Assembly (NCBI GenBank): GCA_044868145.1
Contig: JBIOWE010000006.1
Coordinates: 218,835 to 282,834 of the forward strand
Length of the DNA: 64,000 nt
Origin: Patescibacteria group bacterium
GTDB taxonomy: Bacteria > Patescibacteriota > Patescibacteriia > UBA10025 > JBIOWE01
Direction of reading: 5' to 3'
In this document: one piece after another, positions 1 through 30,712 of the stretch
Layout of the letters: the number at the start of each line of letters is the position of its first letter
How positions within the stretch are numbered: the stretch's first letter is position 1
Notes under the pieces: generated by a model
Told to the model about the DNA's origin: nothing
The model's input: only the letters and a program-made list of their open reading frames with translations
Databases searched by the model: none
Position numbers and translations under genes: made by a program

Positions 1-23
1 TGTCGATCAATGCTAGCAGAACA

Positions 24-1394
24 ATGACTGTAACGTCTGCGGGCTCGCTGTCGTTGAGCGGCACGATCTCTGGTTCCGGCAAGTTAACGTATAAGCCGAG
101 CGCGTCGTTCCCAACCGGCGGCACGATTTCTTCCATTCTCCGCTTTGATTCGACTGACAATGACCAGACGATGGGCGCGCGGACCTACGGCGGCGCGGTG
201 GAGGTTTTCAACACTAGTGGTTCGAGTCGAACCGTGACCGCTGCTGCTGGGACGCTCGCATTCTCCTCGACCCTCGACATCTCCAAAACCGGCGGTGGCG
301 GTGAGACCCTCGAGCTGAACACGAACGACCCCACGACAACGATTAGCGGCGCAGTCACGATTGGTTCCGGCACAACGTTTTCCGCGAACAGCGCGAACGC
401 CTTGAACATCAACGGCAACTATACGAATAGTGGTACGTTCACGGATAATTCAGGCACAGTTACTGTTGCCGGCTCGGCCCAACAAACCTTCAACGCGACG
501 ATGACCGGCAGTTCAGACTTCAATAACCTGACCATCACCAATAACTCGGGTTCGGATCCGGTTACCAGCCCGTCGGTCATTTTCTCCGCTAGCGCCACGA
601 CCGCGGGGACGTTTACCGCCACAACGGCGAATGTCAAACTCCGCTTCTTTGCTGGCGGGACGTACACGTTCCAGAACATCAGTTTTAACGGTCAAGCTAC
701 GACGTCTCGCGTCGCCTTGCGAAGCTCATCGGCTGGGACGGACTGGAACTTGAACGTGGCGGGCACGCGTTCCGTGCTGAATACCGACGCGAAGGATTCG
801 GATGCGTGCGGCCAAGCCCCGAACATTGATGCAACGGATATTTCCACGCTCGATTCAACGGGCAACACCTGTTGGGATTTCAGCGCGACCCAGTTTAGCA
901 TCTCGGACACGACGATTGGGTTTGGCGCGATTACCGCGAGCACAGGTCGCTGGGCGACTGGTGATACGAACGGTACGGACGCCTCCGCCACGACCCCGAC
1001 CGCGGCACACACGATCAGCATACGGACGAGCGCAGGGAACGGCTACGCCCTGACGTATTTTGGCGCGACGCTTACAAGTAGCGGGAACACGATCTGCCAA
1101 ACCCCCCTCACAGACTGCGTGGACGCGACTGACGACTCGGATGGCGCACCTGGGACCGAGCAATTCGGGATTTCCGTGAGCACCGACGGGAATGCAACTA
1201 TTGCTGCCGGGTACCTCCGCGACAGCGCCGCCTCATTCAATTTCATTCCTTCAACGACCACGACGATCGTTTCGGAAACTGGCGCGACCGCCACAGAAAC
1301 GATCACCGCGAGCTACCTCGCGAACATCGCCGCCCTGACGGAACCGGGTGCCTACTTGACTAACATTACGTATATCTTGACGGCGACGTTTTGA
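24..1394 (+). CDS. Secreted Thr/Ser/Gly-rich surface protein, paralog A; probably 5'-truncated by the window edge
   Basis: No in-frame stop upstream of the ATG at 24 and no signal peptide on the first Met, so the gene likely starts before the window. The C-terminal ~170 aa are near-identical to the C-terminus of the 2304..3383 product (shared SDTTIGFG, TICQTPLTDC, GTEQFGISVST and TTTTIVSETG blocks). High-GC, Thr/Ala/Gly codon-rich. Confidence 0.6.
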   Translation: MTVTSAGSLSLSGTISGSGKLTYKPSASFPTGGTISSILRFDSTDNDQTMGARTYGGAVEVFNTSGSSRTVTAAAGTLAFSSTLDISKTGGGGETLELNTNDPTTTISGAVTIGSGTTFSANSANALNINGNYTNSGTFTDNSGTVTVAGSAQQTFNATMTGSSDFNNLTITNNSGSDPVTSPSVIFSASATTAGTFTATTANVKLRFFAGGTYTFQNISFNGQATTSRVALRSSSAGTDWNLNVAGTRSVLNTDAKDSDACGQAPNIDATDISTLDSTGNTCWDFSATQFSISDTTIGFGAITASTGRWATGDTNGTDASATTPTAAHTISIRTSAGNGYALTYFGATLTSSGNTICQTPLTDCVDATDDSDGAPGTEQFGISVSTDGNATIAAGYLRDSAASFNFIPSTTTTIVSETGATATETITASYLANIAALTEPGAYLTNITYILTATF

Positions 1395-1409
1395 TCCATT
1401 TTTTGCATA

Positions 1410-1517
1410 GGTGGCAAATCTTTTTGCCACCGGAACGGCTCACAAACAAGATTTTTGAGCTATGCGTTGAGAATAAATATTTAACGTTTTCGCGTAGATG
1501 CCAAATCTTGTTTGGCA
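1410..1517. repeat. Left REP-like palindromes: hairpin GGTGGCAAA/TTTGCCACC (1410-1431), AACAAGATTT motif (1445-1454), hairpin GATGCCAAA/TTTGGCATC (1495-1517)
   Basis: Perfect 9-bp stems read directly. The loops carry AAATCTT(G)TT, the reverse complement of the AACAAGATTT motif. Confidence 0.7.
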
Positions 1518-1529
1518 TCGAAAGGTTAA

Positions 1530-2018
1530 ATGATTATGGCTCGAACACGTTTGTCATTAGATGGTCAATTCCGTTACTTTGTCACCGTCTCAACGTCAGA
1601 TCGCAAAAAGATTTTTCAAAATAATACGATTAAGGATTTATGGATACAGAGTCTTGGTTATTGCCATAAAAAATTACATTTCTTTCTTTACGGATACGTA
1701 CTACTACTCGATCATTTTCATTTAATGTTAATGACAAAGGGTCATCGAAAAATTGAGGATGTGATGCGTCACGTGAACGGAGTTTTTGCGCAGCGTTACA
1801 ATAAGCTAGCTAACGAATATGGACAGGTGATCCAACGACGATTCTGGGACCACGCCATTCGGAATGAAAAAGATTTTATCGAGAAGCTCGATTATATGCA
1901 CAAAAATCCTTTAAATCACGGTTTGGTAGATGATGTTGAGGATTGGCCGTATTCGAGTTGGCATAATTATAATTGTAAGCATAAACCATTAATCGAAATA
2001 GATGCTATTGATCTCTAG
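1530..2018 (+). CDS. HuH-family Y1 transposase (IS200/IS605 TnpA or RAYT-like), 162 aa
   Basis: HFHLML matches the His-hydrophobic-His motif. The C-terminal region contains the putative catalytic Tyr near WPYSSWHNY. Size is typical of Y1 transposases. Flanking hairpins are present. Confidence 0.7.
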   Translation: MIMARTRLSLDGQFRYFVTVSTSDRKKIFQNNTIKDLWIQSLGYCHKKLHFFLYGYVLLLDHFHLMLMTKGHRKIEDVMRHVNGVFAQRYNKLANEYGQVIQRRFWDHAIRNEKDFIEKLDYMHKNPLNHGLVDDVEDWPYSSWHNYNCKHKPLIEIDAIDL

Positions 2019-2036
2019 GTCTTAATAGATGCTTGC

Positions 2037-2133
2037 GCTGATAAACAAGATTTATCAGCTACGCGACAGGAGGCATATTCTGTTTCATTTAAAACTCCTG
2101 CCCAAAAACAAGATTTGCCTGCCTGTCGACAGG
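2037..2133. repeat. Right REP-like palindromes: hairpin GCTGATAAA/TTTATCAGC (2037-2059) with an AACAAGATTT loop, a second AACAAGATTTG copy (2105-2117), and the 12-nt perfect palindrome CCTGTCGACAGG (2122-2133)
   Basis: Read directly. This is the fourth copy of the AACAAGATTT core within 700 bp. Confidence 0.7.
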
Positions 2134-2177
2134 TAGGTGAGCTACGCGGAGGCGGAGTTGAAAATTGATACAAATCG

Positions 2178-2206
2178 TTGACTGATTGGCAAAATCGTGC
2201 TATACT
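2178..2206 (+). promoter_or_regulatory. Sigma70-like promoter: TTGACT, 17-nt spacer, TATACT
   Basis: -35 at 2178-2183 and -10 at 2201-2206 with a 17-nt spacer, upstream of the 2304 gene. Confidence 0.5.
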
Positions 2207-2303
2207 ATATGCGTAACCTAACTAAAAAGGTCGGGCTGTGTATATCTGAAAAAATGCACAGCAAAACAAAAACAAACAATCATTAAAAGCTCAATAATTA
2301 TCC

Positions 2304-3383
2304 ATGAAAATTCATAAGATATTCTTCATAGTAATGGTTCTCATTACGGTTTTTGGGATTAGCTTCCCGATCCAGAACGCAAAGGCAGCTGCTTTAACAA
2401 GCGTGAAAGATGTGATGAATACGATTGCCGCGACCGCGAACGCGAACCATACGATATCGTTCGTTGCTCCGTCTGCGGTCTCGAACGGTTCTACCATCAC
2501 CTTGACCTTTCCCGCAGGTTTTAGCTTAACCGGTCTTGTCGAGGACGACATTGACATTGCGGGTACGACAGAAGGAGAACTAACCACAGCCGCTGATTGC
2601 ACGGGCAGCGAAAAAGCGAGCTTTAGCTTCTCTGGCCAAGTCATTACGTTCACGCTTTGTGCTGGTGACGGCGGTGACTTCACGGGATCGGAAACAATCA
2701 CCATCGAGATTGGCAATCACGCAAGTGCATCCGGAACAGGTTCCAACCAAATTGATAACCCTTCAGCCGGCGACTATCGTATCACCATCGGTGGTACCAT
2801 GACGGACTCCGGCGCGTTTGGTGTCTCAATCATTTCGGATGACAGCGTCAACGTGACCGCGCAGGTGAACGAGTCCATCACCTTCACGATTTCCGACACG
2901 ACAATCGGGTTTGGTACAATTACATCGAGTACAGGTCGCTGGGCGACTAGTGACACGACCGGTACTGATGCCTCGGCAACGACGCCGACATCCGCCCATA
3001 GCATGACCATCGCGACGAACGCCACAGGCGGTTACACGATCACGTACAACGGCGCGACGCTCACAAGCGGCGCGAACACCATTTGTCAAACACCGCTCAC
3101 AGACTGCGCGGACGTGACCGATGACTCGGATGGCAACCCCGGCACGGAGCAGTTTGGAATTTCCGTGAGCACGAGTGGGGACGCCACTATTCCTGCCGCG
3201 TATCTGCGAGATAGTGCCGCTTCCTTTGAATTCAAGCCTTCAACAACCACGACGATCGTCTCGGAGACTGGTCCCACAGCAACGGAGACAATCAGCACGT
3301 CCTATCTTGGCAATATCACCGGAACAACCGAAGCCGGCGCCTACTCGACGAACATCACGTACATCGCGACCGGCACGTTTTAA
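2304..3383 (+). CDS. Secreted Thr/Ser-rich surface protein, paralog B (359 aa), with N-terminal signal peptide
   Basis: Signal peptide MKIHKIFFIVMVLITVFGISFPIQNAKA. C-terminal module ~80% identical to that of the 24..1394 product. Confidence 0.7.
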   Translation: MKIHKIFFIVMVLITVFGISFPIQNAKAAALTSVKDVMNTIAATANANHTISFVAPSAVSNGSTITLTFPAGFSLTGLVEDDIDIAGTTEGELTTAADCTGSEKASFSFSGQVITFTLCAGDGGDFTGSETITIEIGNHASASGTGSNQIDNPSAGDYRITIGGTMTDSGAFGVSIISDDSVNVTAQVNESITFTISDTTIGFGTITSSTGRWATSDTTGTDASATTPTSAHSMTIATNATGGYTITYNGATLTSGANTICQTPLTDCADVTDDSDGNPGTEQFGISVSTSGDATIPAAYLRDSAASFEFKPSTTTTIVSETGPTATETISTSYLGNITGTTEAGAYSTNITYIATGTF

Positions 3384-3490
3384 GCCAGTCCGTAAGCCGA
3401 CAGCCAAACATCCTGACAGCCATCAGCCATTCAGCCTTTAAAGCTGAAAAGCGTTGCAGAATCTTCGTTTATGGATTTTAAAACAAAAAA

Positions 3491-4486
3491 ATGCCGACAA
3501 TAATGAGGAAATTAGGTGTTCTTACTGTCCTCACGATCGGCATTTTTTTTGTTGTCCAAAACGCCCAAGCTATCACCATTATCCCCCCCTCGTTCGAGTT
3601 TCAGGTAAAACCTGGCGAAACGATCAAGACAAAAATAAAGTTATTCAACGAGGAACAGCAGGCAAAACAACTTTATTCAGACGTTACGAATTTTACGGCC
3701 CAAGGGGAAACGGGAAATCCGCAGTTCGACCTGAAAGCTCAAAGAGTGGACTTAAGCGCTTGGATAGATGTTGGGCCCGGCCCATATCCGATGCAAGCCG
3801 GAGACAGGATTGAGGTGCCGATTACGATTAATGTGCCTAAAGATGCGGAACCGGGTGGGCATTATGCGGCTGTGTTCTTTACGACAAAACCACCAGACAC
3901 GGAAGAAAGCGGTTCTATTGGCATTGCATCAGCGATTGGGTCACTTTTCCTCGTGCGCGTTGAAGGCGAAATACGCGAACAAGGTTCTTTAATTGAATTT
4001 TCCGTGGCAGAAGGCAAAACGTTGTTTTCCCGTGCCCCGATCGACTTTTTTGTTCGCTTCAGTAACACCGGCAATGTCCATTTACGGCCGACCGGCACAC
4101 TTACAATTAAAAACATGTTTGGGGGAACAAGCGATACCATTGATGTGAACCCGGGCAAAGGGGCCACTTTACCAGGTCAAATTCGTAAATATGAAGTCAA
4201 ATGGGAGCGCGGGCAGGTTCAAGCCGGAACAGGTAGCGCATGGTCTGATTTTTGGAAAGAATTCAGCAATGAATGGAATAACTTTGCCATTGGCAAATAC
4301 ACAGCTTCCTTGGCTCTAACGTATGGAATCACTCCTGCGGGTAACGCTTCGGGAGAATTGGACTTCTGGGTCTTACCGTGGCATGTATTGTTGGTCTCTC
4401 TCTTCACCCTAGCGATTGTCGTGGTTTTGTTGATCTTCTTCATCAAGCGATATAACGCTTGGATAATTCGTAAAGCAAAGCAGTAA
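3491..4486 (+). CDS. Cell-surface protein with signal peptide and C-terminal TM anchor; DUF916/DUF3324 (CscA-like) architecture
   Basis: N-terminal signal peptide, a beta-rich ectodomain, and a single C-terminal TM helix (VLLVSLFTLAIVVVLLIFFI) followed by a basic tail. The architecture matches the membrane-anchored partner found in Gram-positive WxL/Csc surface clusters. Assigned by architecture only. Confidence 0.45.
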   Translation: MPTIMRKLGVLTVLTIGIFFVVQNAQAITIIPPSFEFQVKPGETIKTKIKLFNEEQQAKQLYSDVTNFTAQGETGNPQFDLKAQRVDLSAWIDVGPGPYPMQAGDRIEVPITINVPKDAEPGGHYAAVFFTTKPPDTEESGSIGIASAIGSLFLVRVEGEIREQGSLIEFSVAEGKTLFSRAPIDFFVRFSNTGNVHLRPTGTLTIKNMFGGTSDTIDVNPGKGATLPGQIRKYEVKWERGQVQAGTGSAWSDFWKEFSNEWNNFAIGKYTASLALTYGITPAGNASGELDFWVLPWHVLLVSLFTLAIVVVLLIFFIKRYNAWIIRKAKQ

Positions 4487-4500
4487 TTGATTGAGACATT

Positions 4501-5355
4501 GTGCGACTGATATCTCTTCGAGTTTACTTGATTTTAGTTCCCATGGTCATCGCAGGTATGGTCATGGGAAGTTCTTTAATTAGTGCGATTGACGTTTCTA
4601 TTTCCGCGGTTGTGTCTGGGACACCGCCTGAAGAGCCGGATACCGTTGTCGTTTTTAAAGGATATGCTTCGCCTGGTGCTTTAGTAACCATTCGGGAAGA
4701 CGGCACCGTGCTCGCGACAGTCACGGCGGGGCCGGATGCGCGGTTTGAAGTTTCAAAAATCATTAATCCGGGAATTTACACGTTCACCCTGTTTGCCACC
4801 GACATCCGAGGAGTCGTTAGTTCGACATTCAGCATAACGTTGAGCTTAAGCCAAGGAACGACAACCACCATTAGTGGCATCTTTCTTGGTTCTACAATTT
4901 CAACGGACAGATCTTCTTACAGCGTCGGAGATATCGTGTCCATTCTTGGCTCGACAGTTCCCCTCTCCACTGTGAGCGTTATTGTGCATTCACACCTTAC
5001 ACAGCAATTTAATGTGAATGCCGGTTCCGATGGTGTCTGGTTGAAACAGGTCTCTGCGGATGGACAATCCATCGAAGTCGGAAGCCATTCAACGTACTCG
5101 CAAGCCGTCGCGCCAGATAACTCCATTTCCGAATTAAGTAAGACCGTAAGCTTTGCCGTCGGCGCGGGAGGGTCGTGCGCAGGATACCTTGCCGCGGATA
5201 TTAATTGCGATGGGTTTGTTAACCTTATTGATTTCAGCATTATGCTGTTCTACTGGAATTCAAGGAACCCAGCGAATCCGCGTGCGGACATTAACGGCGA
5301 TGGACTCGTGTATATAGTTGACTTCAGTATTATGCTTTTCCATTGGACGGGGTAG
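4501..5355 (+). CDS. Secreted/anchored protein with Ig-like region and C-terminal dockerin domain (GTG start)
   Basis: Two tandem Ca-binding dockerin repeats at the C-terminus: DINCDGFVNLIDFSIMLFYW and DINGDGLVYIVDFSIMLFHW. N-terminal hydrophobic signal/anchor. Confidence 0.7.
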   Translation: MRLISLRVYLILVPMVIAGMVMGSSLISAIDVSISAVVSGTPPEEPDTVVVFKGYASPGALVTIREDGTVLATVTAGPDARFEVSKIINPGIYTFTLFATDIRGVVSSTFSITLSLSQGTTTTISGIFLGSTISTDRSSYSVGDIVSILGSTVPLSTVSVIVHSHLTQQFNVNAGSDGVWLKQVSADGQSIEVGSHSTYSQAVAPDNSISELSKTVSFAVGAGGSCAGYLAADINCDGFVNLIDFSIMLFYWNSRNPANPRADINGDGLVYIVDFSIMLFHWTG

Positions 5356-5388
5356 TGTAGCGACGGATGTCCTTGACACAGGGAGATG

Positions 5389-5450
5389 CTGAAACAAGTT
5401 CAGCATGACATGACTCTAGCCATCAAGTAGTCATTCTGAACTTGTTTCAG
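5389..5450. repeat. Long inverted repeat / stem-loop: CTGAAACAAGTTCAG (5389-5403) and its exact reverse complement CTGAACTTGTTTCAG (5436-5450)
   Basis: 15-nt arms in perfect reverse-complement orientation with further inner pairing (ATGACT/AGTCAT). The core GAAACAAGTT resembles the AACAAGATTT REP core near the Y1 transposase. Confidence 0.6.
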
Positions 5451-5487
5451 AATCCCCTTCAGATACTACGTAATCAAACCATAATCC

Positions 5488-6633
5488 ATGCTTCATCGCA
5501 CCACAACAATAAAAATACTGCTATACTTTTTCTTTACGATCGTTGGTGGAATAGTATCAGCCGCATCTCCCGCAGACGCTGCTATTTTGTACGTTAATCC
5601 TGCGGAACAGACTGTTGCATTGCGCGAAAGTTTTGTTGTTGATATTTTGCTGAACAGTGAAGGAGAAACTATTAATACGGTTCAGACGAGTATCAATTAC
5701 TCGCCTGATCTTCTTGAGATTCTTGACGTGTCGAAGGGAGGATCGTTCTTAACGCTTTGGCCGGAGGAGCCGCTTGTTAGTGCACCAACAGGAGTTGTCT
5801 CGTTGGTCGGAGGCATCCCGAACGGTAGCCTTGTGGTAGACGGACGCGTTGTACGTCTTTTTTTTCGGGCAAAGGCGCTCGGAACCTCTTCCATTCGTTT
5901 TGATGAAGACAACTCAGCTATTTACTTGAACGACGGAAAAGGCACGAAGACTGCTCTTTCCAGTCGTCAAGCATCGTATAAAGTAACAAACCCTTCCCCT
6001 TTTCTCGTGGAGATTACTTCTTCGACGCACCCGGACGAAAATATCTGGTATAATAAAGTGTCAGCCACGCTCACATGGCAGGTAAAAGAAGGCGCGCTGT
6101 ATAGTTATGCACTTGCCGAGAGCCCGCTTGATACTCCAGATGAAAAAATTGAGGACCAGGTGGGGAAAGTGACGTTTGATGATCTTGAAGATGGTATCCA
6201 TTATTTTATTTTGCGAGAAAAATTAGACGGCGATGAGTGGGGGCCTGTTTCCATGCGACGTATCATGGTTGACCGATCACCCCCGATCCAGTTTGAATAT
6301 GCATTTTCGAAAGATGATGCAGGAAAGTCCATTTTGATATTTTCCGCGAACGATAAATTCTCCGGCATTGACCGATACCAAATTACCGAAGGACGGAAAG
6401 GGTTAGCTACTGCTCAAAGCCCCTATACTCTCCTGGATCAATCGCGCAAGTCGGCCATTACGCTTCAAGCAGTTGATAGCGCTGGTAACATAAGCGAAAT
6501 TTCCATACCCGGCCTTGGCCGTTCGGAAACGAAGAAAGGTGTGGATCCCCTCGTATGGGTTGCGGTCTCGCTGGTCGCAATTGTCTCGTTCGTATCTTTA
6601 TTTCTTGTATCAAAAAGACGAAAGATCACTTAA
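5488..6633 (+). CDS. Membrane-anchored cohesin-like domain protein 1 (signal peptide, cohesin-like module, Ig-like domains, C-terminal TM)
   Basis: Residues ~30-150 fit the cohesin pattern (ILYVNPAEQTVALRESFVVDILLNSEGETINTVQTSINYSPDLLEILDVSKGGSF, cf. CipA cohesins). C-terminal TM WVAVSLVAIVSFVSLFLV followed by KRRK. Confidence 0.55.
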   Translation: MLHRTTTIKILLYFFFTIVGGIVSAASPADAAILYVNPAEQTVALRESFVVDILLNSEGETINTVQTSINYSPDLLEILDVSKGGSFLTLWPEEPLVSAPTGVVSLVGGIPNGSLVVDGRVVRLFFRAKALGTSSIRFDEDNSAIYLNDGKGTKTALSSRQASYKVTNPSPFLVEITSSTHPDENIWYNKVSATLTWQVKEGALYSYALAESPLDTPDEKIEDQVGKVTFDDLEDGIHYFILREKLDGDEWGPVSMRRIMVDRSPPIQFEYAFSKDDAGKSILIFSANDKFSGIDRYQITEGRKGLATAQSPYTLLDQSRKSAITLQAVDSAGNISEISIPGLGRSETKKGVDPLVWVAVSLVAIVSFVSLFLVSKRRKIT

Positions 6634-6634
6634 T

Positions 6635-7882
6635 ATGTGGATGACAAGAACGAAAATATTCTACTCTCTTGCCTTTGCTTTTCTACTGGTCGTCGTTGGG
6701 ATACCGCACGTTGTGCACGCGGCCGGTTCTTTTTTCCTTAGTCCGAACGTCGGATCGTATACGGTCGGTTCTACGATTACCGTTCGTCTTGTTGTCGGCA
6801 CAGGAGGTCAAGCGATCAATTCTGGACAGGCTACAATCACTTTTCCGACAAGCACCCTCGAGGCGCAAAGCGTTTCAAAATCAGGGTCTATTTTTACGCT
6901 CTGGCCAGAAGACCCACGTATTGTTGGCGACACAGTAACATTCGCTGGCGGATTACCAACCCCTGGCTACAACGGAAGCGGCGGCTTGATTATTACCGCG
7001 ACGTTTCGCGCGACGGCGACTGGTACTGCTACTGTACGTGTTACTTCAGGCCGATTGTTGTTGAACGATGGTTCAGGCACAAATATTCTCACTGGATTTG
7101 GTTCGGCAACCTATACCATTACGCCGGCCCCGCCAGCAAAAAACACGCCAGCAGCTCCAACCGTTTCTTCGAGTTCGCATTCAGATCAAAACCTCTGGTA
7201 TGCAAACTCAAACCCGACATTCGATTGGACGCACGGCGACGGTGTAACGGGATTCAGCTATTCCTTTGACGACCAGGAAGGCGCAATTCCCGATGAGGTA
7301 CAAGACAGCACCTTGCCGCAAGCATCCTATGCTGGGACAAAAGATGGATTCTGGTATTTCCATGTTCGAGCAAGAAATGACGACGGATGGGGAGCCACTG
7401 GCCACTTTACCGTTCGCATTGATACAACGGCGCCGCTTCCGTTCGAGATATTTGCTCTTCTGGATGAGGAACAATCTCAAGATGCCACTCGTCAGATAGC
7501 GTTTAAAACAACAGATGCCGTGTCTGGGCTGGACCATTATGATGTGTATGTGGACGGTTTACACATTGAGCAATTACAGCCGGCTGAAACAGTGCTCTAT
7601 ACGTTGCCGGACTTGCCGCAGGGAACACATACCATTCTCGTGCGAGCAGTTGACCGCGCCGGCAACAGAACCGACGCCTCAGTAAACGTTGGTGCTGCAC
7701 GTTCTTGCCCAAGGACAGGTTTCCAGATAGGTTCATTGTCCACGTGGTGTACCTGGATAGTGGTTTTTCAATGGCTTATAATTCTGCTGCTTATTTTGTT
7801 TATCCTCGCATTACTCAATCGGCGAAACAAGCAGGCTCCAACCACTCAAAATCGCAAGCATCAGCATCAGTCATCCAAATAA
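6635..7882 (+). CDS. Membrane-anchored cohesin-like domain protein 2 (paralog of 5488..6633)
   Basis: Starts at ATG 6635 (MWMTRTKIF...), immediately after the upstream stop. Same domain order as protein 1: a cohesin-like module (GSFFLSPNVGSYTVGSTITVRLVVGTGGQAINSGQATITF), shared downstream domains, and a C-terminal TM. Confidence 0.55.
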   Translation: MWMTRTKIFYSLAFAFLLVVVGIPHVVHAAGSFFLSPNVGSYTVGSTITVRLVVGTGGQAINSGQATITFPTSTLEAQSVSKSGSIFTLWPEDPRIVGDTVTFAGGLPTPGYNGSGGLIITATFRATATGTATVRVTSGRLLLNDGSGTNILTGFGSATYTITPAPPAKNTPAAPTVSSSSHSDQNLWYANSNPTFDWTHGDGVTGFSYSFDDQEGAIPDEVQDSTLPQASYAGTKDGFWYFHVRARNDDGWGATGHFTVRIDTTAPLPFEIFALLDEEQSQDATRQIAFKTTDAVSGLDHYDVYVDGLHIEQLQPAETVLYTLPDLPQGTHTILVRAVDRAGNRTDASVNVGAARSCPRTGFQIGSLSTWCTWIVVFQWLIILLLILFILALLNRRNKQAPTTQNRKHQHQSSK

Positions 7883-7888
7883 GACGTG

Positions 7889-7917
7889 TTTTTGAAAACG
7901 GGCTTTGATCAAACCCG
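7889..7917. terminator. Bidirectional intrinsic terminator hairpin between convergent genes
   Basis: AAAACGGGC-TTTGATCAAA-CCCGTTTT: an 8-bp G/C-containing stem with A-runs on one side and T-runs on the other. Confidence 0.6.
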
Positions 7918-7919
7918 TT

Positions 7920-9728
7920 TTATGATATGCGATGTTTTATTATGATACGTTGGACCGCATCTTCCGGCGGCTTGCTGCCTTGTTGACTAATTCCGCCCGA
8001 GCGGAGAGGAGTGGAAAATAGATACCCGGGATACCAAATGCCTGTGTGTCCATGCTCAAGCATCGTCAGCCAGAGGTCCCAATCCTGCAGACGTTTGAGG
8101 GACGGATCAAATCCTGGGAAATGTTCTTTTCGAATCAGTGACATAGTGCTGATATAGTTTTCGCGACGCAAACGATCAGGGTCGAATTCAAAAAGCGAAA
8201 ACGTGCGCCATCCGAAACGAAAGTTAGCGTAACAATATGAGGCGTCCGCATGGGTTTCGAGCGTTTTGACCATTGTGTCGATGGCGCGCGGATGCAGCAC
8301 AACGTCCGCATCGCAAAAGAACAGATATTTCCCTTTTGCCGTCGCTGCACCCGCGTTGCGCGCGGCTGAAGAGCCGGCATTGCTTTGCTGTATCACCGTG
8401 AGGTTTGAAAATGATCGTAGGATGTCAATTGTCCGGTCGGTTGAACCGTCGTTTACAGCTATAATATCGATATGCGAGTACGATTGTGCTTGAATTGATT
8501 GTAAGGTCCTTCGAATAGTAGATTCGGCTTGGTAGCACGGAATGATAACAGACACTAGAGGTTTTTTAGCAAGCCCCAGCGCAGCGAGCATCGGTTGAGA
8601 GGTTACATCCCAGGAAAATTTCTTCACGCGTTCTCGACCCTGCTCACCAAGCCGATGGGCGTACCTTTCATCTGACAACAGCGATACGATTTTTTTTGCT
8701 ATATCGTGCTCATCCTCCGGATTCACAAGCAGACCAGATTCGCCATCGCTAATGGCTTCCGGTATCCCCCCACTGCGCCCGCCGATCACCGGTTTCGCAA
8801 ACGTATTTGCATCCAGGAATACGATGCCGAACCCTTCAAAGTCCTTGATTGTTCCATTGCTGATTGTGCGCGATGGAATAATGAATGCATCGCTTATTTC
8901 GTACAGAGGCCCGAGATCCTCAGACGACACATAGTCCAAGAATTCAACACGTTCACTTATCCGCAGTTCATTGACGATGCGTAGTAAGGGGCCGCGTTCT
9001 GGACCGCGTCCAACAATGAGATACAAAAGATTTGGTATTTTTGTAATAACAAGTGGAAGGGCGCGCAATACCATATCATGGCCCTTTCGTTTTTCAAGCC
9101 GAGAAACCGAGAGGAGTACTCTCTTTCCAAGCGCGCCGTATTGTTTCCTCGCTTCATCAACTTTGGCTTGGAGGACATCAGTCTGTAATTTGGAAGGTCC
9201 TGGATATACCACGATCGTTTTGGCCTGAGCAATCCCCCATTGTTGCACTTCTGTCGCTGTGTAGTTGCTTGCGCAAAATATCCAGTCCGCATTGTGGAGT
9301 ATCCGGCGCATCAGCCAAGCTTTTCTACCGGAGCTTCGCGGCAGTGTTACATCCGTGCCATACGCAAAAACGCTATATGGAATACCAAAAAATAGTTTCA
9401 ATGCGTAGGCAATCGTTCCGACTGGCATGGTTTGACCCGCCAATATATATGTGGTTCCGAGTTGACGCACAAGCCGTGCGGACGTAAAAAAGCCCACGAG
9501 CCATTTCGGCCAAATCGGGAAGTTTGACTTGATTAAGGCACGATGGTAAACGTTTTGCGCGTCGGGATTGCTGGTTTGATGGTTCTGTTGCCGTTCAGTT
9601 ACCACATGAACCGTAGATGTTTTCCTTAATTGCTCGACAGTTCGCTCAAGAAATTGAGCAACTCCGCCCACCTGCGGCGGGTAGTCTAGCGTGATGAGCA
9701 AAATATGTTCAGCCGAGTTTACACCCAT
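7920..9728 (-). CDS. Bifunctional glycosyltransferase: N-terminal GT4 (group 1) fused to C-terminal GT2
   Basis: GT4 EX7E region (EGFGIVFLDANTFAKPVIGGRSGGIPEAI). GT2 motifs VSVIIPCYQAE...AVNDGSTDRT and the DAD motif (FFCDADVVLHP). Confidence 0.8.
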   Translation of the reverse strand: MGVNSAEHILLITLDYPPQVGGVAQFLERTVEQLRKTSTVHVVTERQQNHQTSNPDAQNVYHRALIKSNFPIWPKWLVGFFTSARLVRQLGTTYILAGQTMPVGTIAYALKLFFGIPYSVFAYGTDVTLPRSSGRKAWLMRRILHNADWIFCASNYTATEVQQWGIAQAKTIVVYPGPSKLQTDVLQAKVDEARKQYGALGKRVLLSVSRLEKRKGHDMVLRALPLVITKIPNLLYLIVGRGPERGPLLRIVNELRISERVEFLDYVSSEDLGPLYEISDAFIIPSRTISNGTIKDFEGFGIVFLDANTFAKPVIGGRSGGIPEAISDGESGLLVNPEDEHDIAKKIVSLLSDERYAHRLGEQGRERVKKFSWDVTSQPMLAALGLAKKPLVSVIIPCYQAESTIRRTLQSIQAQSYSHIDIIAVNDGSTDRTIDILRSFSNLTVIQQSNAGSSAARNAGAATAKGKYLFFCDADVVLHPRAIDTMVKTLETHADASYCYANFRFGWRTFSLFEFDPDRLRRENYISTMSLIRKEHFPGFDPSLKRLQDWDLWLTMLEHGHTGIWYPGYLFSTPLRSGGISQQGSKPPEDAVQRIIIKHRIS

Positions 9729-11221
9729 TTTTTACGCAGGACAGCAACGAGAAGCGATCGTACGTCTTCTTTTGTAAAACCGCGAATCGCGTATAATGTC
9801 ACGAAATAGAAGATTACGCCGATGCCAATAAGAAGCGCTACATGGAAGCTGTTTCTTAAAAGAAAAAGTCCGATTGCCATAACTGCGCTGACGCCGACAG
9901 TTTTTCCAAGCGTAATAAAAAGCGTTTTCCTATTATACGGTGCGATTTTGCCGATCCAGCGTAGCCCAAGGAAAAAAAGCAAAACGCCGCTTACCAGCGC
10001 AGCGATTGCCGCGCCCGTAAACGTGTAGCGAGGGATAAGAAGAAAGTTCAGGGTAATATTTACCAGTACGGTAATGCCAATATTTATCGTATTAATAACT
10101 TGACGGTTTGTTGCATACAGCATTGTCCCGACCGGAAAATTCAAAAAAATTACCGTTAATCCCGCAATAAGAATCCGTAACGGAATGATTGATGTGCTAA
10201 AGTCTGGTCCGTAGAGTGTAAGAATAATGGAATCCGCAAGTGCGAATATTCCAAAGGAGATGGGAACCGCGATGATCATTAAGTAGTACATCGCACGTTC
10301 AAACGTTTTGCCCAGTGCTTGTTTATTCGTGACAAAAAACGCGCTCATCGCTGGATAGAGTGCTGCGGCAAACGCAGAAGGGATAAACTCAAGGGCATAG
10401 GTTAATTTGTGCGCTGTAACGTACCAGCCGACGTACCGTTGGCCGGCAAGAGCTAAAAGCGTGAACCGATCGGTGAAGGTATAAATTTTAGTAAAAATAG
10501 CTGCGATGGCAAACGGGATTGCATATCGAAGGAACGTTTTAATGGTCTGCTTGTTCCATGAGAGACCGGGTACAATGTGTAATTTCAGCCGCAGCATCGT
10601 AATCGAATAGATGAAATTAAAGATGCTGCCGCACACAATGGCGAGGAATAGCGCGCGGAGGCCAAAGTGCAGAGTGAGCGCGCCGATGCCCGCGATCATC
10701 GTAATGAGCATGTTGATAATCATTCCAATCGCTTCGTACTTCAGATTCTGTAGGCCGCGGAAAACTGCATAAAAAGTTAAGGAAAAAGTATCAAGTGCCA
10801 CGACGAGCCCCGCAGTGTAGATGATGGATTTTGCCACGTTGGTGTACCCTGAGAAGTTCGTGAAAATTCCTAGAGCGGTGAGAATGATGAGAGTGAAAAT
10901 TATCTTTACTCCGAGAACGTTGTTTAAATATTCCGAAGTACGGGTTGGTGAACGGGCAATTTCGCGTACCAGTACCGCGCTCAAGCTAAAATCAATGAGA
11001 ATGAGCAGTATGGGGATTATTGATTTAACGGGGTCATAGAGCCCAAGGTCTGTTGGCCCAATTGTACGGGCAACAACGATAAAATAAAAAAAGGAGAGAA
11101 TTTTTTGCACGACAAAAGCTACCGTGAGGTAGCTTGTATTGCGCAGGATGCGCTCCTGACCGTTTGGTTCTGATTGTTGCTGAGGTTGATCCATCAGAAA
11201 GCGTTTTACCGCTTTTGCCAT
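9719..11221 (-). CDS. wzx: Polysaccharide/oligosaccharide flippase (Wzx-like, MOP superfamily)
   Basis: ~12-14 predicted TM helices. N-terminal region typical of polysaccharide biosynthesis proteins. Confidence 0.65.
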   Translation of the reverse strand: MAKAVKRFLMDQPQQQSEPNGQERILRNTSYLTVAFVVQKILSFFYFIVVARTIGPTDLGLYDPVKSIIPILLILIDFSLSAVLVREIARSPTRTSEYLNNVLGVKIIFTLIILTALGIFTNFSGYTNVAKSIIYTAGLVVALDTFSLTFYAVFRGLQNLKYEAIGMIINMLITMIAGIGALTLHFGLRALFLAIVCGSIFNFIYSITMLRLKLHIVPGLSWNKQTIKTFLRYAIPFAIAAIFTKIYTFTDRFTLLALAGQRYVGWYVTAHKLTYALEFIPSAFAAALYPAMSAFFVTNKQALGKTFERAMYYLMIIAVPISFGIFALADSIILTLYGPDFSTSIIPLRILIAGLTVIFLNFPVGTMLYATNRQVINTINIGITVLVNITLNFLLIPRYTFTGAAIAALVSGVLLFFLGLRWIGKIAPYNRKTLFITLGKTVGVSAVMAIGLFLLRNSFHVALLIGIGVIFYFVTLYAIRGFTKEDVRSLLVAVLRKKWV

Positions 11222-11730
11222 TGTGGAGCGCGACGTGCTCCCTTTAGTCCATATTTTTTTCGTTCTTTCATGCGAGCGTCGCGCGTCAAATATCCAGACT
11301 GCCTGAGAATCGGGCGAAGCGCAGGATTGATAGTAATAAGGGCGCGCGCGATACCGTGCCTCGTGCTCTCCGCTTGCCCGCGTACCCCTCCCCCTTCAAC
11401 GCGTATAGTAAACCGGCCTGTCCCCGCGAGGTTGGTCACTTCCAAAGGCGAGCGGACGATGGTCTGAAATTCCTCTTGAGGGAAATACTGCCGGTAGTCT
11501 TTTTCATTCACGATAATCTCGCCTTTACCCTCTTCGTAAAAGCGAACCCGCGCTCGAGAGGTCTTACGCTTGCCAATGCCATAGATGAACTCGCCGGTCT
11601 TCGCATGAGCTGTCTTTTTTTCAACGACAGGAGTTGGAATCTCAATAGGTGCCGGTTGTTTGGGCAGTTTTTCCTTTTTTTCAATGCGTTTCCTTTGGGA
11701 GCTTGTTTTCTTTTGGATCTTTTTCGGCAT
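11206..11730 (-). CDS. rpsI: 30S ribosomal protein S9 with a Lys-rich N-terminal extension
   Basis: GIGKRKTSRARVRF...GGGVRGQAESTRHGIARAL...RDARMKERKKYGLKGARRAPQWQKR. A ~45-aa K-rich leader precedes the S9 core. Confidence 0.9.
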   Translation of the reverse strand: MPKKIQKKTSSQRKRIEKKEKLPKQPAPIEIPTPVVEKKTAHAKTGEFIYGIGKRKTSRARVRFYEEGKGEIIVNEKDYRQYFPQEEFQTIVRSPLEVTNLAGTGRFTIRVEGGGVRGQAESTRHGIARALITINPALRPILRQSGYLTRDARMKERKKYGLKGARRAPQWQKR

Positions 11731-11735
11731 ATATT

Positions 11736-12119
11736 TTATTCGCGAATTTCCAGTTGTCGAATCATTTCCTTTCGGAGTTTATTTTTGGGCAACATGCCCA
11801 TAACGGCTTTGTGAAGCGCAGCCGTAGGCTTCACGCGGAGTAATTCTCCTAACGTGATCGATTTGAGGCCGCCTGGATGATGCGTATGGTGCCTATACAC
11901 TTTTTGTTGCGGCTTTTTTCCGGTAATACGTATTTGCCTAGCGTTCGTTACGACTATTTTTTTTGCATCAAGTCGCCAGGGGCGGTAGCTTGGCGAATTT
12001 TTTCCGCGTAAAAGAAAGGCAACACGTGAGGCAATCCTGCCCAATGAAATGCCGCGGGCGTCAAGTACTACCGGTTCAACAATTGGTTTACTTGTTTTCT
12101 TTGGTTTTTGGTTCTGCAT
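11736..12119 (-). CDS. rplM: 50S ribosomal protein L13
   Basis: VLDARGISLGRIASRVAFLLRGKNSPSYRPW...VVTNARQIRITGKK. Start probably at MQNQKPKK (12119) rather than the ORF-track start at 12230. Confidence 0.9.
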   Translation of the reverse strand: MQNQKPKKTSKPIVEPVVLDARGISLGRIASRVAFLLRGKNSPSYRPWRLDAKKIVVTNARQIRITGKKPQQKVYRHHTHHPGGLKSITLGELLRVKPTAALHKAVMGMLPKNKLRKEMIRQLEIRE

Positions 12120-12471
12120 ATGGCATAAGCTCGAGGAGCGCGAGCGATGAACCGTCGGAGCGCGTTTGACCGAGACGAATGAGACGCGTGTATCCGCCTT
12201 TTCGATCTTTATAGTGATGGGCAAGGTCACGCACTATTTTGTTAGCTATATCTCGGTTCTTGAGGCGTTGGGTAACAAGTCGCCTCGAGGCTTCCGTGTT
12301 CGTTTTGCTCCGGTGGATTAGTTGTTCGATAAGAGGTTTAACCGTTTTTGCTTTGGCGAGCGTGGTTTTGACGTGTCCATGTTGAAAAAACGAAATTGCC
12401 AGGTTAAGGAGCAACGCATTTCGATGCGCGCGATCACGATCGAGTATTTTCTTATTTTTTCGGTGTCTCAT
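12088..12471 (-). CDS. rplQ: 50S ribosomal protein L17
   Basis: MRHRKNKKILDRDRAHRNALLLNLAISFFQHGHVKTTLAKAK. The ORF-track N-terminal extension is antisense to the rpoA 3' end and is rejected. Confidence 0.9.
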   Translation of the reverse strand: MRHRKNKKILDRDRAHRNALLLNLAISFFQHGHVKTTLAKAKTVKPLIEQLIHRSKTNTEASRRLVTQRLKNRDIANKIVRDLAHHYKDRKGGYTRLIRLGQTRSDGSSLALLELMPYAEPKTKENK

Positions 12472-13252
12472 CTTTTTCTTGCGACTTCTTTTCTTTCGTT
12501 TCCTTCTTCTTTGGTTTCTCTTCCGCCTTTTTCCCTTCTTTTTCTTTTTGTTCGGTTTTCTGTTCGGCAATGAACCTGAACTGTTCAACGAGTAAGCCAG
12601 CTGCGATTCGTATCGCTTCCGCTGGGGCGATTGATCCATCCGTTGTGAGGTTCATCTTGAGGCGATCATAGTTCGTCATTTTTCCGACACGCACGTTTTC
12701 TACTTCATAGTTGACGTTACGAACTGGCGTAAATATAGCATCGATGCCGATAGTGCCCAATTCAAGCTGGCCGCGCTCCATACTCTCTACAGGTCGATAT
12801 CCCCTGCCATACTCCAGGAACAGTTCCATGGAGAGTTCTGCAGTTTTGTCGGTTAATACAGCAATGGGCGCTTCCGGGTTAACTATCTCGACTTCGCTAG
12901 TAAGTTTAATGTCCTTGCCCGTGATATTTTTCTCACCTTTCGCTTTTAGGTGTACTTGCGCCTGTTCAACGCCATGTAGTTTGAACCGTAGTTGTTTCAC
13001 GTTTAATATAATATCCACAACATCTTCTTTGACGTGTGGTACGGTCGTGAATTCGTGTGTTGCTCCTCTGATTTTGATAGCTGTTACAGCTGTGCCAGGT
13101 AAAGAAGAAAGGAGGATCCGACGAAGTGCATTGCCAATTGTTGTGCCATACCCCGGGAAGCACGGCTCTAAAGTGATGATTGCTTGATTCTCACCAACTG
13201 ATTGAAGTTCGAATTTAGTGGGGAGCAATATATCTTCCATATACTTTATCAA
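12452..13252 (-). CDS. rpoA: DNA-directed RNA polymerase alpha subunit: NTD plus a Lys/Glu-rich tail, no alpha-CTD
   Basis: An alpha NTD (ALRRILLSSLPGTAVTAIKIRGATHEF...), ending around residue 230, followed by a ~36-aa K/E-rich tail. Total length is 266 aa, so there is no room for the canonical ~80-aa CTD. Confidence 0.85.
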   Translation of the reverse strand: MIKYMEDILLPTKFELQSVGENQAIITLEPCFPGYGTTIGNALRRILLSSLPGTAVTAIKIRGATHEFTTVPHVKEDVVDIILNVKQLRFKLHGVEQAQVHLKAKGEKNITGKDIKLTSEVEIVNPEAPIAVLTDKTAELSMELFLEYGRGYRPVESMERGQLELGTIGIDAIFTPVRNVNYEVENVRVGKMTNYDRLKMNLTTDGSIAPAEAIRIAAGLLVEQFRFIAEQKTEQKEKEGKKAEEKPKKKETKEKKSQEKDETPKK

Positions 13253-13269
13253 ATATTAATCGTAAAATG

Positions 13270-13653
13270 TTAGACTCGTCGAATTTTTCGCGGGCGCGGG
13301 CCGTTGTGCGGTATTGGTGTTAGATCTTTGATCGCCAAAATGTTCATGCCATTTGCATGGAGGGCTCGCACCGCCGATTCTCGGCCAGATCCCACCCCTT
13401 TCACAAAGACATCAACGCTACGCAGGCCGGTTTCGCGTGTCCGGTCCAACGCATCCCGGACGATCACACTGGCGGCGTATGGTGTTGATTTCTTCGGTCC
13501 TTTAAAGCCAACCTTGCCCGCAGACGACCAGCCAAGCACATTACCCGACTGGTCCGTAATGGTTACAATGGTGTTATTATATGATGCCTGAATATACACG
13601 CGGCCTTGAGTGACCGTCGCTTTCTTTTTCTTTTTGATTGGTTTCGCGTCCAT
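13270..13653 (-). CDS. rpsK: 30S ribosomal protein S11
   Basis: GRVYIQASYNNTIVTITDQSGN...SVIVRDALDR...NILAIKDLTPIPHNGPRPRKIRRV. Confidence 0.9.
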   Translation of the reverse strand: MDAKPIKKKKKATVTQGRVYIQASYNNTIVTITDQSGNVLGWSSAGKVGFKGPKKSTPYAASVIVRDALDRTRETGLRSVDVFVKGVGSGRESAVRALHANGMNILAIKDLTPIPHNGPRPRKIRRV

Positions 13654-29815: not shown

Positions 29816-30712
29816 TCAGCCTGCTGGACGGGAGTTATCCACAGCGAGTTTCATGAAATTGTAGACAAGTTTTGCCGCAAGAAAATTCGGAGCTTCAAGG
29901 CCCGGAATTGGCTTGAGCTCAACGGCGTCCGCGCCGACTATGTTGACAGAACGAAAAACTTTTTCTACGAAATTGAGCACCTCGTACCACCCTAATCCTC
30001 CAGGTTCAGGCGTGCCGACGGATGGCATGATCGATGGGTCGAAGCAATCAAAATCAAAGGTTATGTACACATTTCTCGTTAAACCCTTTAGCACCGTTTT
30101 GAGTGGCGGAATGTTAGGAGCATAATACACGGTCCTGATGCGGTGTTTTCTTATGTACTGTTCTGATTCAGCATTGATATTTCTGATTCCAATGGAAACG
30201 GTGGGGACATTGAGTTCTCTGATCCTCCGCATCACGCAAGCATGGCTCCACTTTGTTCCTTCAAACGAATTGAGGAAATCCGTGTGGGCATCAAAGTGGA
30301 GCACGGAGATGTCTTTGATTTTTTGCTTGACCGCCTTTACGGCGCCGTAGGTAATCGAATGCTCCCCGCCGAGTGTTATCGGAAATTTTCCCTCTCTCAC
30401 TGCTTTGTCCGTGATAACCTGCTGCACACCATCAAGCGCTTTTGCGGGAGAGTCTTTTGAAACGACGATTTCATCAAGGGTGAAAACATCAGTGGACGCG
30501 AGCCCCACAAGTTTATCTTTTTCGGCTGCGTCGAGCATTTCATCAAGATACCGGGAATTTTCGATAATTGAATAGGGCCCCGCGTTTGTACCGGAAGAAA
30601 AAGAAACCGTTCCTTCATACGGTATGGGAAAAATGACAACCTTCGCTTTCTGAAAATCTTGTTTGTGAACCGCGCCAAAATTAAACGGCCACAACTCGTA
30701 GGTTTTAGTCAT
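29816..30712 (-). CDS. speB: Agmatinase/arginase-family ureohydrolase (likely agmatinase)
   Basis: HFDAHTD and DFDCFDPS metal-binding motifs. Start probably at MTKTYELW. Confidence 0.75.

Follow-up and report, generated by a model that had tools for sequence, protein, structure and literature searches.

The RAYT gene and its product

The window considered here is a stretch of 64,000 nucleotides from the genome of a Patescibacteria group bacterium (GenBank assembly GCA_044868145.1, contig JBIOWE010000006.1, positions 218,835 to 282,834). The intergenic region 1395-2303 of this window contains a single open reading frame (ORF), 1530/1536-2018 on the + strand, which is flanked by five hairpin units of the repetitive extragenic palindromic (REP) kind. 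From 1536 to 2018 it encodes a 160-residue protein with an HuH motif and a single tyrosine of the Y1 type, assigned below as a REP-associated tyrosine transposase (RAYT), also named TnpAREP. The ATG at 1536 (MARTR...) is favoured over the start at 1530, as a GAAAGG ribosome-binding site lies 10 nt away and the N-termini of homologues agree. An earlier sequence-only reading of the window had described the ORF, its HFH motif and tyrosine region, and flanking hairpins with the core AACAAGATTT, all of which were found in the sequence, and had offered a complete IS200-type element or a REP-RAYT unit as explanations.

Family models place the protein among the RAYTs. The NCBIfam equivalog model NF047646 (REP_Tyr_transpos) is matched with 117.8 bits at a cutoff of 80, covering profile positions 4-146 of 146, while the NCBIfam IS200 model NF033573 reaches 22.6 bits and stays under its cutoff of 55. 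Pfam assigns the protein at superfamily level only (Y1_Tnp, PF01797, 'Transposase IS200 like', 1.2e-7). The sole match in a sequence search of the PDB is E. coli TnpAREP (4ER8, E 2.4e-13). In the alignment with 4ER8, the HuH motif H60-F-H62 corresponds to H59/H61, the catalytic Y120 to Y115, N124 to N119, and the metal ligand H128 to H123, residues whose active-site roles in the E. coli enzyme have been established (Messing et al., PMC3479197). The set of HuH, catalytic tyrosine and metal-binding residues is complete, and H60, Q100, Y120 and N124 are invariant in 75 homologues.

The tyrosine motif (Y120-MHK-N124-P125, or YMHKNP) has the form Y-x3-NP, which is the signature of class 2 TnpA-Y1 enzymes, and not Y-x3-Q, the signature of IS200 (PMC6006769). 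A WPYSSW motif lies in the tail. By the GTAG-contact criteria of the same study, the contacts Q95, W99, H101 and R104 of the E. coli protein are retained as Q100, W104, H106 and R109, and E100 is represented by an aspartate (D105), as in subclasses 2.5 and 2.7. The AlphaFold model, based on an alignment of the 75 homologues, has a predicted local distance difference test score (pLDDT) of 92.6. Its top fold match is 4ER8_A at full length (164 columns, template modelling (TM) scores of 0.77/0.75, E 6e-11), and this match takes in the C-terminal extension beyond the IS200 core. The TnpA proteins of IS200, IS608 and ISDra2 align with the core only (about 116 columns, TM approximately 0.56).

These results bear on a rival explanation, namely that the locus is a complete IS200/IS605 insertion sequence, with the flanking hairpins as left and right ends, that moves by peel-and-paste transposition of single-stranded DNA (ssDNA). 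The Y1 HuH fold, the PF01797 match, the secondary fold matches to IS200/IS608 structures, and the position of hairpins on either side of the gene are in line with this explanation. It is contradicted by the IS200 score below cutoff, by the class 2 tyrosine motif, and by the full-length fold match including an extension that IS200 TnpA does not have. Furthermore, no tnpB is present in the 64-kb window, and tblastn identified no second copy of the RAYT gene there.

The public gene call at this locus retains only the C-terminal 84 of the 160 residues (Logan contig L173, 9461-9715, equivalent to window 1764-2018), a point that deserves a practical flag. L173 7698-21080 corresponds to window 1-13383, with 100% identity over the 13.4 kb compared. 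Exact look-ups of the 162-residue and 160-residue products gave no match because the public call is the truncated 84-residue ORF; the full RAYT protein is therefore missing from the protein collection.

REP hairpin units around the gene

The five REP units, named A1, A2, B, C and D, share one build. Read on the foot strand, each comprises a foot CGC[G/A]TAG, five variable stem bases, an AAA-TCTTG-TTT top and a complementary arm ending in C. The last G of the foot opens the 9-bp stem, and AAATCTTGTTT is the loop region. The foot contains GTAG in B, C and D, and ATAG in A1 (TGCATAG) and A2 (CGCATAG).

Unit A1 (1404-1431, + strand) starts 16 nt past the stop codon of the upstream pilin-domain gene. 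Its foot at 1404-1410 is followed by a perfect 9-bp stem, GGTGGCAAA/TTTGCCACC, with the loop TCTT. Unit A2 (1438-1466, - strand) folds into a hairpin at 1438-1460, in which 5 bp and 3 bp are separated by an A.G mismatch, and its foot reads CTATGCG at 1460-1466 on the + strand. Together, A1 and A2 (1404-1466) form an inverted doublet with a 6-nt spacer and two differing stems, similar to REP doublets forming hairpins (REPINs) or bacterial interspersed mosaic elements (BIMEs). Unit B (1491-1519, + strand) has the foot CGCGTAG at 1491-1497, a perfect 9-bp stem GATGCCAAA/TTTGGCATC and the loop TCTTG, and ends 16 nt ahead of the RAYT start codon.

Downstream of the gene, unit C (2037-2065, - strand) starts 18 nt past the RAYT stop codon, with a perfect 9-bp stem GCTGATAAA/TTTATCAGC, the loop CAAGA on the + strand and the foot CTACGCG at 2059-2065. 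B and C are inverted partners with 35-nt arms that are 80% complementary. Unit D (2100-2148, - strand) has the arms GCCCA (2100-2104) and TGAGC (2138-2142), one position of which is a G.T wobble on the GTAG strand, the core AAAACAAGATTT at 2105-2116, and the foot CTACGCG at 2142-2148. It is split by a nested 20-nt palindrome, CCTGCCTGTCGACAGGTAGG, at 2118-2137, inside which CCTGTCGACAGG occupies 2122-2133.

The four hairpins of the sequence-only reading are thus real, but the units number five: the site at 1445-1454 is itself the hairpin 1438-1460, the core at 2105-2117 belongs to unit D, and the hairpin placed at 1495-1517 exists as B at 1497-1519. Stems and cores had been recognised, but the foot beside every stem (CGCGTAG, or CGCATAG/TGCATAG in two units) had been overlooked.

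Several scans show how distinctive these units are within the window. Run with filters off on the 64-kb window, the covariance model R1 recovers only A1 (42 bits), A2 (43.3), B (51.6), C (50.4) and a fragment of D (12.4, a partial match only). Folding as ssDNA yields -10.2 kcal/mol for A1 (z -4.8), -9.9 for B (z -4.5) and -7.8 for C (z -2.6). Exact AACAAGATTT occurs at five sites in 64 kb, four of which lie within 1445-2116, and the fifth, at 30654, is situated without a hairpin inside the coding sequence of an ORF. The joint most frequent 11-mer of the window is AAACAAGATTT, again with four of its five sites in the RAYT cluster. The composite pattern AACAAGATTT-N2-12-CTAYGC has three matches against 0.00 expected, and a scan for foot plus hairpin confines the REP type to 1404-2065. 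At gathering thresholds, no Rfam family was detected in the window.

The units nearest to the gene are inverted, with the GTAG strand being + upstream (B) and - downstream (C), which is the classical REPtron layout. The end hairpins of IS200/IS605 elements fold on one strand, in contrast to the arrangement found here. With the protein-level results, this makes a complete IS200-type element highly improbable.

Homologues with the same hairpins

Identical foot and loop sequences accompany close homologues of the RAYT protein (49-61% identity), which are found in other genomes of the candidate phyla radiation (CPR) and in unrelated gene contexts. The closest homologues, on L001 and L002 (61%), are preceded by one unit and followed by two, of which one carries a nested insert; the context in L001 is Lactamase_B. 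In L062, from a Patescibacteria metagenome-assembled genome (MAG), the homologue (56%) has one upstream unit with a nested insert and two downstream units. It is placed between rpsB and a large ORF, which may be TruD-like. The homologues on L176-L181 (50%) carry two units and a degenerate core upstream, in a Lactamase_B context in L176. L182 (49%), in a hydrolase/ddl context, has at least 10 units on both sides of the gene.

An alignment of 10 units from four genomes has 98.9% of its cells paired. Both sides of the stem vary at each of the five variable pairs, while the foot and the loop top are invariant. The covariation score was reached by none of 500 shuffles, and slid registers fall to 38-61% pairing.

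The stem classes CTGAT and GGTC recur identically in L182, and the CTGAT unit is nearly identical to unit C of the window. A unique stem for every unit, which had been considered, is ruled out by these identical repeated subfamilies and by the CTGAT stem common to L182 and C. The repetition of stem classes indicates that the variation resembles REP subfamilies in BIME-like doublets, comparable to the Y and Z REPs of E. coli. L182 also contains a 46-nt tandem repeat, composed of GGGTCAAACAAGATTTGACCCTACGCGA plus a spacer, in direct orientation both upstream and downstream (70-234 and 764-1017).

Nested GC-rich palindromes interrupt one REP unit in each of three genomes (window 2118-2137, L001 625-652, and L062 688-708). 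The palindrome begins with CCTGCC in the window and in L001, and the insert of L062 holds a CCTGCC...GGCAGG hairpin. In L001 and L062 the insert is located directly past the loop TCTTG, and in the window at the opposite side of the core. The insert may be a second small palindromic element, with the single-stranded loop as its target. The two short contigs that encode the closest homologue both terminate at the upstream REP unit or right next to it (L001 1-30 and L002 1), which could reflect an assembly break at repeated sequence of that genome.

Variable, internally repetitive insertions between the HuH and tyrosine motifs are seen in many homologues (P0009, P0014-P0016, P0019, P0056, P0063, P0109 and others). 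In P0002 and P0009, the insert (RVAASLARG...AYA) corresponds to a REP doublet translated in frame, of the form CGCGTAG-hairpin(TCTTG)-hairpin(CAAGA)-CTACGCG (L003 3473-3530; L183 4507-4573). As a new feature such doublets were rejected, since they have already been described for tnpAREP genes of subclass 2.4 (PMC6006769). Downstream of the P0009 gene, at L183 4890-4990, an internal gene segment (AAAGTATTTTTGCC...) and its REP doublet are repeated, and the contig ends there. The repeat suggests that either part of the gene was duplicated at REP units or a fragment of a second copy is present.

Distribution of the hairpins

As a family-wide control, 80 metagenomic loci with homologues of 30-38% identity were collected from a protein-alignment metagenome scan. 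Perfect GTAG-footed hairpins lie within 250-300 nt of the gene in 55 of the 80 loci, with a density of 2.75/kb close to the gene compared with 0.12/kb elsewhere. Hairpins upstream have their GTAG on the + strand in most cases (41 vs 21) and those downstream on the - strand (40 vs 19), an orientation rule with which units B and C of the window agree. None of the 80 distant loci matches the model with the AAATCTTGTTT loop, and the hairpin type is therefore specific to the close clade.

In the source genome, 71.7 kb of the 397,665-bp contig were scanned, namely the 64-kb window and 7.7 kb further upstream taken from L173. Nothing was found by R1 in the upstream 7.7 kb, and the best flanking 16-mer has just two occurrences. 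Likewise, in the loci L176 (20 kb), L182 (7.8 kb) and L062 (8 kb), R1 detected none at a distance from the RAYT gene. The hairpins of the scanned region form a gene-proximal REP set of low copy number and not a dispersed population. A search for dispersed copies had been proposed as a means to separate RAYT from IS200. The local outcome superficially suits an insertion sequence, but it does not rescue the IS200 explanation because every protein-level test rejects IS200.

An exact-pattern scan of 185,579 species-representative genomes yielded none with more than two matches. It returned 86 stretches, mostly single matches without a complementary stem; such stems are present only in L062 and L067, both CPR, and in L066 (Rhodospirillales). 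The L062 match is the flank of the RAYT gene there, and the L067 site is an orphan doublet (5914-5982) in an intergenic spacer of a 654-kb Saccharibacteria contig (CAZNOH010000001.1), with no RAYT in the 8-kb locus. The REP type thus also occurs apart from the gene, though in very few copies. A pattern scan of viral contigs gave one chance match, lacking a hairpin, in apparent coding sequence.

Proteobacterial sites with AAACAAGATTT followed by CTAYGCG were observed at L066 997-1033 (Rhodospirillales MAG OZ243926.1) and at L085 4966-4989 and 6351-6373 (Cellvibrionaceae MAG). The L066 site forms a 10-bp hairpin, GCGGACAAAA/TTTTGTCCGC, and in L085 a repeat of about 60 nt is present twice. The 8-kb loci of L066 and L085 encode no RAYT homologue.

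The orphan doublet, along with the start of A1 only 16 nt past a stop codon, would suit an explanation that gives the hairpins a host regulatory role, for example as terminators or as mRNA-stabilising 3' structures of the pilin operon, and treats them as chance neighbours of the Y1 gene. REPs of other bacteria are known to influence both mRNA stability and termination (PMC3733652). However, no unit is followed by a T-run, and a terminator scan picked up none of them. The same foot and loop accompany RAYT homologues in five unrelated contexts, the GTAG foot is the recognition element of RAYTs (PMC3479197), and in the region scanned the REP type occurs only beside the RAYT gene. A purely regulatory origin of the hairpins is accordingly very unlikely.

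Neighbouring pilin genes, GC content and mobility

The RAYT gene is located between two + strand genes, at 24-1394 and 2304-3383, which both match the NCBIfam model 'Pam pilus system pilin subunit' of CPR (NF058581). The Pam-pilin C-terminal domain belongs to a CPR pilus system (bioRxiv 10.64898/2026.03.03.709456). The upstream gene represents the C-terminus of a 2,546-residue protein (window 24-1394 together with L173 1451-9091), and the downstream gene, pilin-2, encodes a pilin of 359 residues (P0157). The two paralogues have only their C-terminal 166 residues in common (77% amino acid identity, and 74% nucleotide identity over 502 nt). Their similarity stops within a few bases past both stop codons and reaches no hairpin.

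It had been proposed that the transposase unit mediated or followed the duplication of these genes, and a related possibility is that it drives recombination between the paralogues and thereby pilin variation. The only point in its favour is position, as the unit lies between two genes with a common Pam-pilin domain. At 74% nucleotide identity the paralogues are old, the upstream gene is no simple copy given the size of its product, and RAYT homologues elsewhere are not beside pilins. With the similarity ending short of every hairpin and no junction signature at the hairpins, a role of the RAYT/REP unit in the duplication was discarded as extremely improbable.

A strong sigma-70-like promoter was noted at 2178-2206 on the + strand (TTGACT, 17 nt, TATACT, with TG before the -10 element; 10 of 12 matches). 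Its position, past the REP cluster and 98 nt ahead of the pilin-2 start, means that the pilin-2 promoter is not disrupted by the element.

The low GC content that the sequence-only reading had stressed is real, since the RAYT gene, at 0.37, is the lowest of the 49 ORFs in the window (mean 0.46, standard deviation 0.035). The contrast with the flanks is exaggerated, however, because no other genes of the window are as GC-rich as the two pilin genes (0.58 and 0.54). A deficit of about 0.11-0.13 relative to the gene's own flanks recurs in L001 and L062, two of the three homologues checked. Low GC was consequently rejected as proof of recent transfer and, as a feature that recurs in the clade, is weak evidence of it.

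GC content is one argument for regarding the block from B to C (1491-2065), or the whole of 1404-2148, as a mobile or horizontally acquired unit with hairpin ends that was inserted between the pilin genes. The inverted arms of B and C bracket the coding sequence closely on both sides. Homologues with the same hairpins occur in unrelated contexts (pilins, rpsB and the putative TruD-like ORF, Lactamase_B, hydrolase/ddl), and the contigs L001 and L002 break at the upstream hairpin. In addition, no RAYT gene precedes the pilin in the pilin locus of a relative, L174. This locus does not qualify as a clean empty site, because the gene upstream of its pilin is on the other strand and the pilin itself is only 62% identical. 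Against mobility of the block stand the single copy in 64 kb, the recurrence of the GC deficit in the clade, and the lack of any visible target-site signature at 1490 or 2066. The homologue P0281 occupies one site on all 14 of the 14 contigs read, from several samples, which fits the vertical, single-copy behaviour reported for RAYTs in general (PMC5581495). Mobility of the block as a unit is therefore regarded as unlikely.

Interpretation and proposed mechanism

The locus is best explained as a REPtron, in which a RAYT gene (TnpAREP, class 2 TnpA-Y1), present once in the 64-kb window, is accompanied by local cognate REP hairpins; the probability of this explanation is estimated at roughly 85%. 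Judged by fold and residues, the protein is a RAYT rather than an IS200 transposase and an ordinary representative of a known system, with the TnpAREP fold and a complete active site; the one unusual trait is that its hairpins are confined to the surroundings of the gene in the 71.7 kb scanned. Of the two explanations first offered, the REP-RAYT alternative has prevailed, supported as it is by the family models, by matches to the PDB in sequence and fold, by the catalytic residues, by the inverted GTAG-footed hairpins and by their recurrence beside homologues.

Several observations weigh against the REPtron explanation. The scan of the 71.7 kb revealed no dispersed REP population of the kind by which REP-RAYT systems are usually defined; at the density of 0.12/kb seen around distant homologues, about eight stray units would be expected there. 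W94 of E. coli TnpAREP, which is strongly conserved among the REP-associated TnpAREP subclasses (PMC6006769), is replaced by I99. The covariation sample is small and was picked partly by motif and partly by hairpin scan, so that it represents consistency rather than proof. The two closest homologues, P0001 (L001 57-542, 61%) and P0280 (L062 727-1206, 56%), have HuY instead of HuH motifs (DHFY and DHYY), while the tyrosine motif and the flanking hairpins are retained. Their HuY motifs point to altered metal binding or lost activity in part of the clade, and activity is therefore not assured within it. For the window protein, cleavage and transposition are predicted functions.

A mechanism can be proposed by analogy with E. 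coli TnpAREP, which performs GTAG-dependent cleavage of ssDNA at CT and strand transfer (PMC3479197). A monomeric RAYT would bind the folded hairpin of the GTAG strand in ssDNA, for instance in the lagging-strand template, and would read the GTAG foot via Q100, W104, D105, H106 and R109. The ssDNA would then be cleaved with the aid of the HuH-bound metal (H60, H62, N124 and H128) and Y120, resulting in a 5'-phosphotyrosine intermediate. Rejoining of the strands could copy, delete or rearrange REP units and thus lead to local amplification. Such strand transfer may have left its mark in the 46-nt tandem repeats of L182 and in the nested palindromes of unit D, L001 and L062. In this lineage, RAYT activity has apparently given rise to no more than a small BIME-like set beside the gene, with several stem subfamilies, and to no genome-wide REPIN population.

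The loop is kept across RAYTs of about 50% identity while the stems drift, which suggests that the loop is read base-specifically together with the foot. A more far-reaching proposal combines several elements: the RAYT would act only on the few hairpins of its own gene, with no REPIN population, and recognise them in a manner unlike E. coli, which would amount to a REP type and a mode of recognition not previously described, in ultra-small genomes, with the whole unit possibly being moved. The different recognition is proposed because the foot CGCGTAG and the AAATCTTGTTT top, which contains CT, are conserved, the five stem pairs drift with compensation, and Trp94 is lost. Taken as a whole, this proposal is tentative and rather doubtful.

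RAYT/REP systems are well described, and the NCBI family model would already name this protein. A literature search found no paper describing REP-RAYT systems in CPR/Patescibacteria. With five units beside the gene, a conserved loop and covarying stems, the locus would offer a minimal case for a RAYT role without a REPIN population. The question of IS200 versus RAYT is settled in favour of RAYT, and the proposed link to pilin duplication is removed.

Comparison with known systems

The TnpA proteins of the IS200/IS605 family (IS608, ISDra2, IS200) share with the window protein the core fold (TM approximately 0.56), the HuH motif with a single tyrosine, and, as predicted for the window protein, the recognition of hairpins with a 5' guide sequence. 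They differ in having Y-x3-Q, no C-terminal extension, end hairpins on one strand, multiple copies, and often tnpB. REPINs and GTAG-tagged REP families (Bertels & Rainey 2011; Di Nocera et al. 2013) have GTAG palindromes and inverted doublets in common with the locus and its relatives (A1/A2, L067, L182). Here, in contrast, the units number five in 71.7 kb, all beside the gene, and the doublet halves have different stems, so that no single long hairpin results.

TnpAREP of subclass 2.4 (group 4 of Bertels; Cyanobacteria, Bacteroidetes and various phyla) resembles the window system in its Y-x3-NP motif and low-abundance flanking repeats. An in-frame REP doublet between the HuH and tyrosine motifs has been described as unique to this subclass (PMC6006769). 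More distant relatives, among them P0002, P0009 and many others, contain such doublets, while the window protein itself is without the insertion. It also has DH[F]H and not NH[IFV]H, YMHKNP and not YIxNNP, and the SS tail listed for subclasses 2.2 and 2.6. In a comparison by motifs, the SS tail and the DHxH motif resemble subclasses 2.2 and 2.5.

The closest structural counterpart, E. coli TnpAREP (YafM, 4ER8), belongs to subclass 2.2 of Quentin et al. 2018 and group 2 of Bertels et al. 2017. The identity is only about 25%, the HuH motif is DHFH compared with the subclass 2.2 consensus DHLH, and W94 is exchanged for isoleucine. The window REPs have perfect, short stems with no bulge, an extended foot (CGCGTAG) and a loop top (AAATCTTGTTT) that is conserved between genomes. 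E. coli has hundreds of REPs, whereas no dispersed REPs were detected in the 71.7 kb scanned here. Nevertheless, the two proteins share the Y1 HuH fold with its C-terminal extension, the active-site set (HuH, Tyr, Asn and His) and most of the GTAG contacts. Both the window locus and the E. coli REPtron with its BIMEs combine a single gene copy, in the window locus as counted over 64 kb, with hairpins that carry a 5' GTAG foot, are inverted around the gene, and form doublets of mixed stems, as in the Y and Z REPs.

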